Source: a virus (taxonomy: Duplodnaviria; Heunggongvirae; Uroviricota; Caudoviricetes). Taken from it: a DNA stretch of 7,582 bases. The notes under the pieces were generated by a model. It searched no databases. It was not told the DNA's origin and worked only from the letters and a program-made list of their open reading frames with translations. The position numbers and the translations under genes are program-made. Where the stretch lies: IMG/VR virus record IMGVR_UViG_3300029516_000112; one strand, written 5' to 3'. Every line of letters starts with the position of its first letter. The stretch's first letter is position 1. Positions 1 through 4,856 of this stretch are shown here, piece after piece.

Positions 1-2
1 AA

Positions 3-167
3 AACGCCAGACTGTTAGCCGGGTATCAGTTAGCGGGAGAAATTTTTAAATACTTCACAATTCAGGCGGTTGACTGTTCTCTGGTTTGCGGGGAGTTTGT
101 TAAAAGAAACTGGCATGGTGAATCCCCCTGTGCGGAGGGGCAATCAGCGAGTAGGTATATGGGATAA
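3..167 (+). CDS. Possible 3' end of an upstream CDS (5'-truncated by window edge); candidate late-gene antiterminator Q by position only
   Basis: Frame 3 is open from the window edge to TAA at 165-167 (about 55 codons), ending ...AVDCSLVCGEFVKRNWHGESPCAEGQSASRYMG. It sits immediately upstream of the late/lysis region, where Q lies in lambdoid phages. An open frame this short is weak evidence and I do not recognise the sequence. Confidence 0.25.
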   Translation, partial: NARLLAGYQLAGEIFKYFTIQAVDCSLVCGEFVKRNWHGESPCAEGQSASRYMG

Positions 168-325
168 TCGCGGATTCAGGTGCTGGTACTGAATTCACCG
201 GGAGGCACCCGGCACCATGCACTTCAATAGATTCTCTCCACATTATGGATATTCTTTCAGAATATCCCACGCAGACTTTGTGTAAATGTTAACAAATGTG
301 CGTTTTATTTGATCTGATTCGCTGT

Positions 326-355
326 TTGAGCGTCCAAAACAACGGTATATATAAT
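326..355 (+). promoter_or_regulatory. Candidate sigma70 promoter (TTGAGC, 18-bp spacer, TATAAT) upstream of the first TolA-like lipoprotein gene
   Basis: -35-like TTGAGC at 326-331 and a perfect TATAAT at 350-355; the downstream CDS starts at 385 after GAGG at 377-380. Hexamer match only. Confidence 0.35.
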
Positions 356-384
356 CCTTTACTATATGACATATGTGAGGAAAA

Positions 385-813
385 ATGGGTTTTCGTAGCG
401 CATCAATTCTTACGTTGATTATTAGTGGGATTATTATCGGGTGCACTGATGCTGTATCGACAAATTATCATGACCGTACATCATCTTACTCCGATAAAAC
501 AATAGAGACACAGTATGTGAGTTCATCTGAACGTACTTCTGATGTTAGTGAGGATATCCGTCTGTATGCCCATCAAATCAAGAGCGCCATCGAAAAACAG
601 TTCGGGGATGCGAGTAAGTATTCAGGAAAAGAGTGTACACTGAGAATGCATATGGCCCCGAATGGCCTTCTACTGGAGGTTAAAAGAGAAAGTGGAGACC
701 TCGATTTATGTCGTGAAGCGATGAATGCGATAAAGAATGCTGATATACCTGCCCCCCCTTCGCCGGAAGTATATAAAGTATTTCAAAATGGGGTGCTGGA
801 TTTTAAACCCTGA
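385..813 (+). CDS. Lipoprotein with TolA C-terminal (TolAIII)-like domain
   Basis: 142-aa ORF. N-terminus MGFRSASILTLIISGIIIG|C has a signal peptide plus lipobox-like IIGC; residue after Cys is Thr (not Asp), suggesting outer-membrane sorting. A Ser/Thr-rich linker follows. The C-terminal ~85 aa (HQIKSAIEKQFGDASKYSGKECTLRMHMAPNGLLLEVK...IPAPPSPEVYKVFQNGVLDFKP) aligns colinearly with the E. coli TolA C-terminus as I recall it (...AGQIKSAIESKFYDASSYAGKTCTLRIKLAPDGMLL...IPKPPSQAVYEVFKNAPLDFKP), including both Cys and the terminal DFKP. Confidence 0.8.
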   Translation: MGFRSASILTLIISGIIIGCTDAVSTNYHDRTSSYSDKTIETQYVSSSERTSDVSEDIRLYAHQIKSAIEKQFGDASKYSGKECTLRMHMAPNGLLLEVKRESGDLDLCREAMNAIKNADIPAPPSPEVYKVFQNGVLDFKP

Positions 814-963
814 TATTTATTGTTTTGTAATAAACGGTTTCGGCTTAGGTTTGTTCTGACACAACTACGGCACTGAGCTAAATTTAGCGGATAGTCAGCT
901 CTGAGCCAGTGGCGGACGTAACAACTACTATTGCTGAGATTTTAATGGATTGAGGAGCAAGAA

Positions 964-1359
964 GTGGGATTAAAGAAAATCGTTATGTTGACTTTTTGGG
1001 TCGGTTTTGTTGCGGGATGCACACCTTTACACCCTTCAGATTGCCACAAAACTACTGCTACAGGTAGTTGCAGTTCAGGACGCTGGGATGATCAGGATGA
1101 ATGGGGGGCGCAAGCGCGGGGAATCAGAGCTGCAATTAATGCCAAACTTGATGAGCCGCATAACTGGAAAGGGAAAAAATGCAGGTTGCATATGGAATTC
1201 TCTCAGGATGGCACGGCGTTAAAAATATCTACCAGTAACGGTGATAAAGCCTATTGCGAAGCGATAAAGTCCGCAGCTCATAAAGCCAAATTTCCGGCCT
1301 TCAACAATCCGGAAGTCTACAGAGATTTTCAGAAATCTGGCTTTGACATGCGAGGTTAG
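964..1359 (+). CDS. Second, divergent TolAIII-like lipoprotein (paralog of 385..813)
   Basis: 131-aa ORF with GTG start at 964 preceded by GAGGAG (952-957). Signal peptide with lipobox VAGC, Thr after Cys. The C-terminal domain keeps the TolAIII pattern (KKCRLHMEFSQDGTALKI...YCEAIKSAAHKAKFPAFNNPEVYRDFQ) but is more divergent. Start could instead be the downstream ATG at ~985. Confidence 0.75.
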   Translation: MGLKKIVMLTFWVGFVAGCTPLHPSDCHKTTATGSCSSGRWDDQDEWGAQARGIRAAINAKLDEPHNWKGKKCRLHMEFSQDGTALKISTSNGDKAYCEAIKSAAHKAKFPAFNNPEVYRDFQKSGFDMRG

Positions 1360-1484
1360 CTCTTCAATTACTATATCTCATTCATAGCAAACTGACAGAT
1401 TTGATGATGTTCTATATACGAAACCTGTGATGTCAAGTCTGAGCTAATACAAATAAACATAATATCAGAGAAATACATTTTATT

Positions 1485-1507
1485 AGCTCGCTACGGCGAG
1501 CTTTTTA
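1485..1507 (+). terminator. Rho-independent terminator upstream of the holin gene (candidate tR'-equivalent)
   Basis: Perfect 7-bp GC-rich stem AGCTCGC (1485-1491) / GCGAGCT (1496-1502) with UACG tetraloop, followed by a T-run (1502-1506). Confidence 0.6.
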
Positions 1508-1610
1508 TATTGCATCGTCTCCAGCATATATATCAATTAAGGCTCTGATTGATGTGTCTGGAAGCCTACACATAATAACTATGCCATCCGTTCCGTGCGG
1601 AGGTGAGGCT

Positions 1611-1826
1611 ATGAAATCCATGGACAAAATTTCAACAGGCATTGCCTACGGCACCTCCGCAGGCAGTGCTGGCTACTGGTTTTTACAGCTGCTCGATAAA
1701 GTCACGCCCTCACAGTGGGCAGCAATAGGTGTGCTGGGTAGCCTGGTATTTGGCCTGCTGACGTACCTGACAAATCTTTATTTCAAGATTAAAGAAGACA
1801 GGCGTAAGGCTGCGAGAGGAGAGTAA
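1611..1826 (+). CDS. essQ: Class II holin (pinholin), phage 21 S-type, with dual-start motif
   Basis: 71 codons starting [26 protein letters not shown]...[12 protein letters not shown], matching the S21 pinholin I recall, including the Met1-Lys-Ser-Met4 dual start (ATG at 1611 and 1620; antiholin and holin forms). SD GGAGGTGAGG just upstream. The ORF-track start at 1554 is an upstream extension with no SD. Symbol assigned by Qin-like synteny. Confidence 0.9.
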
Positions 1827-1830
1827 TCCA

Positions 1831-2138
1831 ATGACTCAAGACTATGAACTGGTTGTGAAAGGAGTCCGTAATTTTGAGAATAAAGTTACGGTAACTGTAG
1901 CCTTACAGGACAAAGAACGCTTTGACGGTGAAATTTTTGGCCTGGATGTCGCCATGGACCGTGTTGAAGGAGCTGCGCTGGAGTTTTATGAGGTAGCAGC
2001 CAGAATGAGCGTCCGGCAAGTCTTCCTGGAAGTAGCAGAAAAATTGTCAGAAAAAGTTGAGTCTTATCTGCAGCATCAGTACTCCTTTAAGATTGAAAAT
2101 CCTGCCAATAAGCACGAGCGTCCTCATCATAAATATCT

Positions 2139-2142
<4 letters not shown>
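1831..2142 (+). CDS. ydfR: Small protein of unknown function between holin and endolysin (YdfR/DUF1327-like)
   Basis: 103-aa ORF with SD GAGGAGAG 7 nt upstream of the ATG. Its stop overlaps the endolysin start (ATGA at 2139-2142). Position between holin and lysozyme matches ydfR in K-12 Qin; family assignment is from memory and synteny. Confidence 0.7.
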
Positions 2143-3166
<1,024 letters not shown>

Positions 3167-3417
3167 ATTAATATTAAATCGGATTATTTTTAGCGCTGAA
3201 TGTGAAATTTAAATAAAAAGGACTCTTCCATGAGTCAAAATCCTTGAAATCTTAAGGGTAAGATAAAAGGTCATTAGACAGAATGACACGTTTTATTAAT
3301 AAATAAAGCTATTGTTTCATTCGTGTGTTTTTCTTTACAAAAGTAATCCTTGCTATGGTTGGTTAATCATGCGTTAATGGTGTTCTGGTTTGTTACAAAA
3401 TTATCTGAAGCAGTCAT

Positions 3418-3426
3418 TGTTATAAT
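3418..3426 (+). promoter_or_regulatory. Candidate extended -10 element (TGT-TATAAT) upstream of cspI
   Basis: TGnTATAAT at 3418-3426 in an AT-rich region about 100 nt upstream of the cspI start; no good -35. Sequence match only. Confidence 0.25.
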
Positions 3427-3529
3427 TTTATTATTTGTACCTCTTGAGATTTCCTTGTTGGTTTTTCTCTCTGATATTTTTTTTCGGACCATTCTGCCCA
3501 AGGGCTAACTTCTTCAAAAGGTAATAATG

Positions 3530-3742
3530 ATGTCTAACAAAATGACTGGTTTAGTGAAATGGTTTAACCCTGAAAAAGGTTTTGGTTTCATCACGCCGAA
3601 AGATGGTAGCAAAGATGTGTTTGTGCATTTCTCAGCTATTCAGAGCAACGATTTCAAAACGTTAACTGAGAATCAGGAAGTCGAATTTGGTATTGAGAAC
3701 GGACCTAAAGGCCCTGCAGCTGTTCATGTAGTGACACTTTGA
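3530..3742 (+). CDS. cspI: Cold-shock protein, CspA family (CspI-like)
   Basis: 70 aa [38 protein letters not shown]... with RNP1/RNP2-type cold-shock-domain motifs (KGFGFI, VFVHF). Start taken as the second ATG (3530), SD AAAGGT 7 nt upstream; the ORF track begins one codon earlier at 3527. Confidence 0.9.
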
Positions 3743-3946
3743 GGTAGAAAATATTACAAACCATATTCACTTTAGATGCCCGTGTTGCCATGGTTCTCAG
3801 TATAGAACATCATCTTTTGATGTTTCTGACAGAAATCCTTTCGGGGCAAAATGTATCTTTTGTAAATCAATGATGATTACATTTGATAATATTTCACAAT
3901 ACTTAAATGTTAGCCATCTGTCGTTAGATTTAAGAAAGTGAAAATG

Positions 3947-3969
3947 AAGGCTCCTTCGGGAGCTTTTTT
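3947..3969 (+). terminator. Rho-independent terminator
   Basis: Stem AAGGCTCC (3947-3954) / GGAGCTTT (3959-3966) around a UUCG tetraloop, core GCTCC/GGAGC perfect, followed by TTTTTT (3964-3969). Confidence 0.65.
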
Positions 3970-4013
3970 GCTTAGTGTCTAGTCGATGGATACTCACATA
4001 TTACGGTAACATT

Positions 4014-4244
4014 ATGAAAAAAATAATAGTTTTTTTTAACTCTGAACCAGCAATGGTAGTGCCAGTGATGACCGGAGTTAACACCATCATGCGTGAATAT
4101 CCAAATGGCGAAACAACACACCTCACTGTAATGGCTGCAGGGTTTCCATCTCTGACCGGAGATCATAAAGTCATTTATGTAGCAGCGGATCGACATGTAA
4201 CTTCAGAAGAAATTCTGGAAGCAGCAATGAGACTCTTGAATTGA
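4014..4244 (+). CDS. ynfN: Small hypothetical protein (YnfN-like by position)
   Basis: 76 codons from ATG 4014 (MKKIIVFFNSEPAMVV...); the ORF-track GTG start at 3975 would overlap the terminator. Lies between cspI and gnsB as ynfN does in K-12 Qin. No recognisable SD; I cannot confirm the sequence identity from memory. Confidence 0.45.
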   Translation: MKKIIVFFNSEPAMVVPVMTGVNTIMREYPNGETTHLTVMAAGFPSLTGDHKVIYVAADRHVTSEEILEAAMRLLN

Positions 4245-4747: not shown

Positions 4748-4856
4748 GGAAGGTGCGAATAAGTCACCAAACGCAAAAAAACGCCTATGTAAGTGATTGA
4801 ATTTAATTGACTAAAAGTTTCATTTTCGTTGCGGAGGGTACTTATTCGCACCTTCC
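4748..4856. mobile_element. Miniature non-autonomous element (MITE-like, 109 bp) with IS5-type terminal inverted repeats
   Basis: Perfect 17-bp inverted repeats GGAAGGTGCGAATAAGT (4748-4764) and ACTTATTCGCACCTTCC (4840-4856). The first 16 bp equal the IS5 left terminal repeat as I recall it. Flanked by direct CTAG repeats, consistent with IS5's 4-bp duplication at YTAR targets. The 75-bp interior is AT-rich with no ORF. Confidence 0.6.

Follow-up and report, generated by a model that had tools for sequence, protein, structure and literature searches.

Within lambdoid prophages, the interval between the antiterminator gene Q and the holin gene S is the home of lysogenic-conversion genes, such as those for Shiga toxin (Stx), and the catalogue of its cargo shows what temperate phages offer to their hosts. 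The order in the Stx phage 933W is Q, the late promoter pR′, terminators, tRNAs, stxA2B2, the small RNA (sRNA) element STnc100 (207 bits, beginning 75 nt past stxB), L0105 (nanS-p), L0106, and S. Small outer-membrane lipoproteins that serve exclusion or host fitness and are expressed outside the structural program are also known from phages, namely Cor (phi80/N15), Llp (T5), and Bor (lambda). Cor and Llp bind and block the receptor FhuA. A recent preprint (bioRxiv 10.64898/2026.03.26.714494) describes Llp. The stretch analyzed here, referred to as the window, is a DNA of 7,582 nucleotides (7.6 kb) from the IMG/VR virus record IMGVR_UViG_3300029516_000112, and spans the late-early junction in an E. 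coli prophage of lambdoid, Qin/mEp460-like type. Upstream of its holin gene, the window carries a cassette of two genes, each of which encodes a lipoprotein with a domain resembling domain III of TolA (TolAIII). The explanation favored here, to which a probability of roughly 55% is assigned, is that the cassette is a phage moron and that its products are TolA-mimicking lipoproteins of the outer membrane.

The domain that these proteins resemble is a well-characterized docking site. TolB, the N1 domain of the filamentous-phage protein g3p, and colicin N all dock on strand β3 of TolA (A415-K420, in which D418 and K420 make the key backbone bonds) by β-strand addition, and g3p additionally contacts helix α2 (Ridley and Lakey, 2015, PMC4339652; Szczepaniak review). 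Invaders bind about 40-fold more tightly, the affinity for TolA being ~1 μM for colicin N as against ~40 μM for TolB (PMC4339652). Colicin A binds TolA at L375-P380 together with K368, K379, and K396 (Li et al., 2012, PMC3365938). When TolAIII is over-produced in the periplasm, E. coli leaks periplasmic proteins, as stated in a passage of PMC6195910 that cites Levengood-Freyermuth (1993) and Wan and Baneyx (1998).

Coordinates below are window positions unless marked L001, which denotes the prophage locus of E. coli PI7, where window position 1 corresponds to L001 9001. Several complete E. coli chromosomes share bases 1-1700 at 100% identity, and phage mEp460_ev081, a sequenced phage genome that carries the cassette, shares them at 99.9%; the 100%-identical PI7 prophage was used as a guide to the DNA upstream of the window. 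The borders of the cassette emerged from a blastn comparison with the related phage PhiR49_2 (L003), in which window 43-224 matches 3501-3682 at 96% and window 1575-1900 matches 3871-4196 at 86%. Between these flanks, PhiR49_2 has 188 unrelated bp where the window has 1350 bp, so that the elements on either side, neighbors in this phage, are separated by extra DNA in the window. The GC content is 36-48% inside the cassette and 45-52% in Q and the lysis genes, a modest difference of the kind expected for a moron, and a factor-independent terminator of its own is predicted at the end of the cassette. A preliminary description of this DNA had assigned the cargo to a stretch of ~1.4 kb (168-1610); its right neighbor, the holin gene starting at 1611, was placed correctly, whereas the comparison with PhiR49_2 sets the borders of the insertion at about 225 and 1574. 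The sequence comparison therefore points to an architecture that is very probably that of a moron, i.e., a horizontally acquired, largely self-contained cassette that sits in a lambdoid prophage resembling Qin and mEp460, in the variable part of the late operon between Q and S.

To the left of the cassette, no coding gene ends at position 167, where an upstream gene end had been suspected; this position falls inside an STnc100/PasD-family sRNA element, and the DUF3927 ORF (open reading frame) upstream of the element ends at 18. A recent preprint (bioRxiv 10.64898/2026.05.13.724894) locates PasD/STnc100 upstream of the sialate esterase and the holin-lysozyme operon, in agreement with the order found in 933W, JLK-2012, and PhiR5_1. 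The GC-rich terminator hairpin that is usual for STnc100 is swapped in the window for an AU-rich hairpin at 247-267 (−9.5 kcal/mol) without a U-tract. Because the usual terminator is absent, the STnc100 transcript might run on into the TolA-like genes, and such read-through may contribute to transcription of the cassette. An assignment of the left conserved block to AsxR was rejected; AsxR in 933W is a separate minus-strand match beside STnc100 and is absent from the window. A minus-strand pseudogene for a "hypothetical protein" that RefSeq/PGAP places over STnc100 (L001 9103-9243, window 103-243) is spurious.

The late-gene switch was located in PI7, where the order is DUF968, RusA, Q, pR′, a terminator, a tRNA with anticodon CAU, tRNA-Arg(UCU), an unannotated ORF, DUF3927, STnc100, the two TolA-like genes, and the holin. 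The segment thus occupies the Q-to-S interval of a lambdoid prophage, as had been proposed, with Q, pR′, and the tRNAs upstream and the holin downstream. The PI7 Q protein aligns with lambda Q from end to end at 31% identity (E = 2e-39). Its gene had been looked for directly next to the segment; the neighbor is DUF3927 instead, and Q lies further off, with its stop codon 1006 bp upstream of the window start. The pR′ regions of lambda and PI7 were compared by direct string comparison and by a pattern search. Lambda pR′ reads TTGACT-17-TAAATT-TGACTC-AACGATGGG, and the pattern TAAATT-N6-AACGATGGG was found a single time each in L001 and the lambda locus and was missing from the 16 other loci; mEp460_ev081 carries the same 43-mer of pR′ with one mismatch. 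In lambda, AACGAT is a −10-like pause element that retains σ70 polymerase at +16/+17 for the loading of Q. The hairpin of the tR′-like terminator that follows pR′ in PI7 (L001 8075-8094) is of unremarkable stability for its composition. Q, pR′ with the pause element, and a terminator therefore succeed one another in the manner of a Q-dependent late operon, all outside the window and 1-1.8 kb upstream of it (0.6-1.8 kb if the two tRNAs are included). Because pR′ and the tR′-like terminator sit directly after Q, the cassette is predicted to be included in the Q-dependent late transcript, which would extend from the tRNAs through the lysis genes. This settles one of the two options that had been offered for the late promoter in favor of a position upstream of the cargo, and for that reason the scheme in which the genes have their own promoter in the lysogen and are boosted by Q on induction is favored over one in which they depend on their own promoter only.

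The position of the cassette within the interval can be specified further. Lambdoid and Stx phages share a conserved block at 15-221, which was recovered from 279 phage records (Stx2 phages for the most part), and in JLK-2012 and PhiR5_1, the esterase gene nanS-p lies after this block, as in 933W. The cassette is downstream of STnc100 and hence corresponds to the nanS-p/L0105-L0106 sub-slot of 933W. The slot of the Stx toxin genes themselves is bounded by the ileZ/arg tRNAs and STnc100, and the window cassette lies outside it. The view that TolA-like cargo takes the place used by Stx phages for toxin genes is thus right for the cargo region as a whole and one sub-slot off for this window. In the PI7 prophage, the position equivalent to stxAB is filled by DUF3927 and the ORF that PGAP leaves unannotated; the 92 aa of the latter from an internal GTG (VNIDEASG...) were scanned and matched phrog_2873 (E = 1e-57) and nothing in Pfam. 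Of the TolA-like genes, only one occupies the toxin slot proper, a variant in E. coli JNE170426 (L010) that encodes a 142-aa TolA-like lipoprotein, 65% identical to protein 1, exactly at the stxAB position, where it directly follows two tRNAs and precedes the first of four STnc100 copies. The variant at 80-90%, as in L010, is carried by ~97 genomes. The cargo does vary among relatives, with nanS-p in 933W, JLK-2012, and PhiR5_1, nothing in PhiR49_2, and the TolA-like variant in L010. The STnc100 copies of L010 (5468-5680, 7439-7634, 7698-7907, and 7969-8170), of which three form a tandem array, lie between the TolA-like variant, a gene for an AraC-type helix-turn-helix protein, and a SASA esterase.

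Both genes were described from the outset as encoding lipoproteins with TolA-like domains, and the ORFs at 385-813 and 964-1359 each contain a lipobox and a PF06519 domain. The lipoboxes conform to [LVI][ASTVI][GAS]C with a +2 residue other than Asp (IIGC followed by TD in protein 1, VAGC followed by TP in protein 2), and all of 17 homologues, drawn from both families, retain the lipobox Cys. According to the Lol rule of E. coli, a non-Asp residue at +2 directs a lipoprotein to the outer membrane. Sorting of both proteins to the outer membrane is predicted from their +2 Thr. In the AlphaFold2 models of the domains (confidence score >90), each has the α/β fold of TolAIII, and both residues of the cysteine pair C363/C388 are invariant. 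Neither is a full-length TolA, which has an N-terminal transmembrane anchor and helical domain II (NF007065/TIGR02794): only positions 293-386 of 387 in the full-length profile were matched, with NF007065 scores of 108 bits for protein 1 and 54 bits for protein 2 against a cut-off of 213. Protein 1 exceeds the TIGR02794 cut-off of 59.45 with 75.9 bits, through C-terminal positions 261-362 of 362 only, and protein 2 (47.2 bits) stays below it. The name "tolA" given by PGAP is misleading for both proteins. PGAP moreover marks gene 1 (L001 9553-9813) as "tolA, incomplete, missing N-terminus" because it was compared with full-length TolA; this pseudogene label is an artefact of the RefSeq annotation, as the ORF is complete.

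Protein 1 is the closer mimic. It matches PF06519 with E = 2e-23 (82.6 bits, cut-off 25), and its residues 54-142 align with E. coli TolA 334-421 at 59% identity (phmmer E = 5e-28 to 1S62, 3QDP, 2X9A, and 1TOL). In the AlphaFold2 model, the predicted local distance difference test score is >90 for 54-142 and <50 for most of 1-51, and the model superposes on 2X9A_B, TolA from its complex with IF1 g3p, with a root-mean-square deviation of 0.6 Å and a TMt of 0.96 (Foldseek). The β3 sequence LDFKP is the same as TolA L417-D418-F419-K420-P421, and 11 of the 16 α2 residues are identical. At the colicin A site, the β2 strand is similar, with LLEVKR for LLDIKP, K379 and K396 are kept, and K368 is replaced by His. 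Protein 1 is almost confined to the prophages of Escherichia and Shigella.

Protein 2 is more distant from TolA, being 31% identical to TolA 334-421 and 29% identical to protein 1, but still matches PF06519 with E = 1e-14 (54.6 bits, cut-off 25) and the PDB entries with E = 5e-9 by phmmer; its AlphaFold2 model is confident over 46-131. The GTG start codon aligns with the ATG of plasmid homologues. The linker at residues 20-45 (PLHPSxCHKTTAxGSCSSGRWDDQDEWG; within window 964-1100) contains two extra Cys and is strongly conserved across genera at low AlphaFold confidence; it may have a function of its own beyond passive tethering. Window 934-1362 alone, i.e., the gene 2 coding sequence with its ribosome-binding site, has ~88% nucleotide identity to the gene that follows the nikB relaxase gene on IncB/O/K/Z and related plasmids (88% identity at the amino acid level), and the same gene follows a nikB remnant on pO157 (L008 5964-6395; L009 5964-6395 on an IncB/O/K/Z plasmid). 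Relatives of protein 2 were found at 525 plasmid places in E. coli and on ~600 PLSDB plasmids at 80-90% amino acid identity. The family is also chromosomal in Enterobacter kobei (L011 6001-6435) and Citrobacter amalonaticus (L015 6001-6450), at 80-88% identity. A second, distant plasmid family labelled "tolA" is ~35% identical to protein 2 over the domain and is present on ~310 mostly Klebsiella plasmids in PLSDB.

Of 5426 complete E. coli genomes, 888 contain gene 1, in 780 cases at 99% identity or more; gene 2 with its 3′ untranslated region (UTR) was detected in 782 genomes and the whole 1-1700 stretch in 775. Among 50,697 deposited phage genomes, by comparison, a single one carries the cassette. 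An exhaustive phmmer search returned 130 cluster representatives, of which 72 are 100-170 aa long. As 46 of these 72 have a lipobox, stand-alone TolA-domain lipoproteins make up a broad family. Both proteins belong to phrog_5772, which PHROGs lists under "unknown function." Both genes are under purifying selection, with dN/dS ratios of 0.28-0.36 for gene 1 against the L010 variant and 0.08-0.11 for gene 2 against its plasmid and chromosomal homologues. The cargo is a common, catalogued protein family, for which an attractive hypothesis of function is put forward below.

The regulatory layout is that of an ordinary phage moron. At the promoter-like site (326-355), 29 nt separate the end of the −10 element from the ATG of gene 1, and a Shine-Dalgarno sequence, GAGGAA, is located at 376-381. 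The terminator consists of a hairpin at 1485-1502 with a 7-bp stem, 5 GC pairs, and a 4-nt loop, followed by TTTTTATATT; hairpin and UUUUUAUAUU tract together reach −13 kcal/mol (z = −4.35), and none of 200 shuffled sequences was as stable. The number of terminators found is at chance level (1 against 1.3 expected), whereas the hairpin itself is far stabler than the shuffles. The terminator was rightly called strong; its identification with tR′ was rejected, since pR′ and a tR′-like terminator were found next to Q.

The cassette most likely works as follows. In the lysogen, it would be transcribed, if at all, from 326-355 or by way of read-through from STnc100, and transcription would halt at 1485-1507, leaving the lysis genes silent and sparing the cell the holin. 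Upon induction, RNA polymerase modified by Q and starting at pR′ would pass every terminator and raise the expression of the cassette together with that of the lysis genes. The proteins would be suspended in the periplasm from the outer membrane by a tether of 25-35 residues and present a TolA-like docking surface. As decoys, they may capture ligands that otherwise dock on TolA by β-strand addition, namely the translocation domains of incoming group A colicins and the N1 domain of filamentous-phage g3p, which would make the lysogen tolerant. At the high level of the late phase, the N terminus of TolB might be captured as well and the outer membrane loosened, either as a dose-dependent side effect or as a late bonus. 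Protein 1 keeps the strand that binds g3p, colicin N, and TolB nearly unchanged, and protein 2, diverged there, may bind another partner. In the 1993 work on exported TolAIII, the cells were reportedly also rendered colicin-tolerant. The decoy is judged the most likely function because β-strand addition is promiscuous, because invaders bind more tightly, and because exported TolAIII disturbs the envelope; the idea that the cassette encodes mimics of the C-terminal hub of TolA, acting as decoys for Tol-dependent invaders, is nevertheless put forward tentatively, with somewhat less than an even chance. The position of the protein 2 family beside the relaxase gene on conjugative IncI-complex plasmids, the pili of which are targets of TolA-dependent filamentous phage, fits this idea. 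A still bolder suggestion, which we regard as rather doubtful, is that lipid-tethered copies of TolA domain III on prophages (the window cassette and the variant in the stx slot) and conjugative plasmids (IncI-complex and pO157) represent an undescribed class of immunity, co-receptor mimicry. It would entail, with equal doubt, that Tol-dependent invaders, i.e., group A colicins and pilus-specific filamentous phages, are intercepted in the periplasm before they reach the energized TolA, and that the two paralogues cover different ligands.

Several observations weigh against the favored explanation and its decoy function. Searches of PADLOC-DB 2.0 gave zero matches for the cassette proteins at E ≤ 0.01, and searches of the literature on prophage or plasmid TolA-domain lipoproteins found no relevant study; a TraDIS paper on I-complex plasmids does not discuss the nikB-linked gene, and over-expression of TolA fragments is not among the hits reported in a 2026 preprint on host factors of ssDNA phages. 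Both known binding surfaces are diverged in protein 2 (FDMRG at β3, ALKIST, K368E, and K396H). Its chromosomal relatives in Enterobacter and Citrobacter are in a non-mobile context, next to genes for glutathione peroxidase, RidA, and TetR or next to ars genes, which suggests a physiological rather than a defense role. Ff and If phages infect only cells that bear conjugative pili, and a TolAIII decoy should be costly to the host by making its outer membrane leaky. On the regulatory side, the promoter-like element that had been noted is indeed present and the best in its region, but its match count is not above chance: a match of at least 10/12 appeared in about half of simulated random sequences of the same size and composition (~0.75 expected per 1.9 kb). 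Because such matches are common by chance, the site counts only by its position, 29 nt before the ATG and on the right strand. The ~780 copies are at least 99% identical, so that neither promoter nor terminator gains comparative support from them, and the flanks of the diverged variant are different; in L010, this variant has a weak promoter-like site only and lacks a terminator ahead of the following STnc100.

How well other explanations account for the same observations differs considerably. The cassette might be a late-phase accessory of lysis and release, in which Q-driven, tethered TolAIII titrates TolB, blocks Tol-Pal, and destabilizes the outer membrane, thereby aiding the spanin step or vesiculation and release, and in which the site at 326-355 is irrelevant. 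The location directly upstream of the holin within the Q-dependent transcript, the leakiness caused by over-produced periplasmic TolAIII, the use by TolB of the β3 site that protein 1 conserves, and the statistically unremarkable promoter match all agree with this. However, a strong terminator before the holin is best understood if transcription of the cassette also takes place while the lysis genes must be off, the phage already has a holin, an endolysin, and Rz/Rz1, related phages lyse without the cassette, and plasmid and chromosomal homologues exist without any lysis context; we therefore consider a lysis accessory unlikely. A housekeeping or stress role in the envelope, such as tuning of Tol-Pal or TolB-Pal or of vesicles, by hitch-hiking genes that were captured from plasmids or enterobacteria and whose benefit is unrelated to colicins or phages, would explain why the protein 2 family sits on chromosomes among metabolic genes of Enterobacter and Citrobacter under strong purifying selection (dN/dS ~0.08-0.1), why stand-alone TolAIII lipoproteins are so broadly distributed (72 of 130 short, 46 with a lipobox), and why the contact sites for colicins and g3p are altered in protein 2. 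It would leave unexplained that protein 1 is a close mimic of E. coli TolAIII, with 59% identity and the binding strand intact, and occurs nearly only in Escherichia and Shigella prophages, and also the repeated capture by phages and conjugative plasmids that is typical of conflict-related cargo; this role thus appears quite improbable for the cassette.

The two remaining alternatives have far less in their favor. A late promoter downstream of or inside the segment, which would make 1485-1507 the tR′ terminator and leave the cassette on its own promoter only, could draw on the strong terminator ~100 nt before the holin and on a weak promoter-like site at 1549-1576, but the near-exact lambda-type pR′ core with AACGAT and a terminator right after Q, 1 kb upstream of the window, and the lack of the 1485-1507 terminator in PhiR49_2, which has the same holin flank, render it very unlikely. 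Least probable of all is that the ORFs are decaying tolA pseudogene fragments: the incomplete-tolA label of PGAP would suggest so, yet gene 1 has a complete ORF with a Shine-Dalgarno sequence, an ATG, a signal peptide, and a lipobox, is annotated as intact in other genomes, evolves with dN/dS well under 1, and yields a confident domain model. A moron cassette that encodes TolA-mimicking outer-membrane lipoproteins hence remains the favored explanation. The preliminary description was sound in outline, with respect to the Q-to-S cargo and the late promoter upstream of it, and erred in three details, which concern position 167 as a gene end, the terminator that corresponds to tR′, and the sub-slot within the Stx cargo region.

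Features of the window and of the adjoining PI7 locus are listed in the table. An ORF at 2820-3116, embedded in the Rz gene in the +1 frame, has the lipobox LIVLTSC and a proline-rich tail; it corresponds to the Rz1 o-spanin expected here and adds a third lipoprotein gene to this stretch. Past the lysis genes, 3372-3788 comprises a cspA-type thermoregulator 5′ UTR (Rfam RF01766, 107 bits) and the cold-shock gene cspI, after which come small Qin-type genes and a DUF1441 small terminase. Truncation of the prophage after the small terminase was considered and rejected, given that the ORF of the large terminase runs off the end of the window. An insert of ~108 bp at 4748-4855, which neither PI7 nor mEp460_ev081 contains, carries terminal inverted repeats of 19 bp (AGGGAAGGTGCGAATAAGT and ACTTATTCGCACCTTCCCT) with TA flanks and looks like a miniature inverted-repeat transposable element.

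Table. Features of the late-gene region in the window and in the PI7 prophage upstream of it (positions marked L001 refer to the PI7 locus).
Feature	Position	Strand	Evidence and remarks
Q antiterminator, 273 aa	L001 7173-7994		Pfam PF03589, E 6e-55
pR′	L001 8000-8042		TTGATT-16-TAAATT-CGTCAT-AACGATGGG; begins 6 bases past Q stop codon
tR′-like terminator	L001 8075-8094 + U-tract		~50 nt downstream of pR′
tRNA, anticodon CAU	L001 8138-8213		
tRNA-Arg UCU	L001 8314-8390		
ORF unannotated by PGAP, up to 117 aa	L001 8501-8854		between tRNA-Arg and DUF3927
DUF3927/TciB-like small ORF, 42 aa	L001 8890-9018; 3′ end at window 1-18	+	PGAP coding sequence; Pfam DUF3927 E 4e-25; phrog_1470, category "moron"
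STnc100/PasD-family sRNA element	84-274	+	Rfam RF02076, full model, 114 bits against gathering score 47
Inserted cargo module, ~1350 bp	~225-1574		absent from related phage PhiR49_2
σ70 promoter-like site TTGAGC-18-TATAAT	326-355	+	10/12 match, best in first 1.9 kb
TolA-domain-III lipoprotein 1, 142 aa	385-813	+	signal peptide, lipobox IIGC (Cys20, +2 Thr), S/T-rich linker 21-53, TolAIII domain 54-142
TolA-domain-III lipoprotein 2, 131 aa, GTG start	964-1359	+	signal peptide, lipobox VAGC (Cys19, +2 Thr), conserved Cys-containing linker, TolAIII-like domain 46-131
Intrinsic terminator (predicted) ending the cassette	1485-1507	+	104 nt before holin start
S21-type holin (essD/essQ-like, dual-start MKSM)	1611-1826	+	Pfam PF04971 E 5e-36; PGAP essD; first lysis gene, right anchor of slot
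ydfR (DUF1327)	1831-2142	+	Pfam, PGAP
Endolysin	2139-2672	+	Pfam, PGAP
Rz-like DUF2514	2669-3166	+	Pfam, PGAP

The cassette is present in about one-seventh of complete E. coli genomes, and its relatives reside on pO157 and on widespread IncI-complex resistance plasmids. If the decoy function is true, it would account for some of the insensitivity to colicins that E. coli isolates naturally show, would be relevant to colicin- and phage-based antimicrobials, and would add periplasmic co-receptor mimicry to the known exclusion strategies. If Tol-Pal is perturbed instead, the cassette would provide a natural handle on the stability of the outer membrane and on vesicle production.

The locus shares features with several known systems and differs from each. 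Like the stxAB cassette of 933W, it is cargo predicted to be part of a Q-dependent late transcript, between Q-pR′-tR′-tRNAs and the S holin and with STnc100 in the same interval, and its expression would rise on induction; by contrast, stxAB is upstream of STnc100 and the window cassette downstream, and the product is an exported lipoprotein pair instead of a toxin. The nanS-p (9-O-acetyl sialate esterase) and L0106 genes of 933W, JLK-2012, and PhiR5_1 occupy the same sub-slot, from STnc100/PasD to the holin, but the proteins are unrelated, the esterase being a secreted enzyme and the window proteins mimics of a receptor domain. The nikB-linked gene for a TolA-C-domain lipoprotein on IncI-complex plasmids and pO157 is a close homologue of gene 2, although it is found in a plasmid context by relaxase and oriT, as a single gene without a partner resembling protein 1. 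In comparison with domain III of E. coli TolA (PDB 1S62, 1TOL, 2X9A, and 3QDP/3QDR), the fold, the disulfide cysteines, and, in protein 1, the β3 strand are the same; however, the transmembrane anchor and helical domain II are absent, so the window proteins cannot couple to TolQR and the proton-motive force, and they are predicted to be lipid-anchored to the opposite membrane. Recombinant periplasmic TolAIII is likewise an isolated C-terminal domain of TolA exported to the periplasm, but is artificial, soluble, and over-expressed, whereas the window proteins are natural and predicted to be lipid-tethered. Finally, the window proteins resemble Cor, Llp, and Bor in being small phage-encoded lipoproteins with predicted sorting to the outer membrane, but are unrelated to them in sequence; where Cor and Llp block FhuA, the window proteins copy a periplasmic co-receptor domain and would therefore act as decoys and not as plugs.

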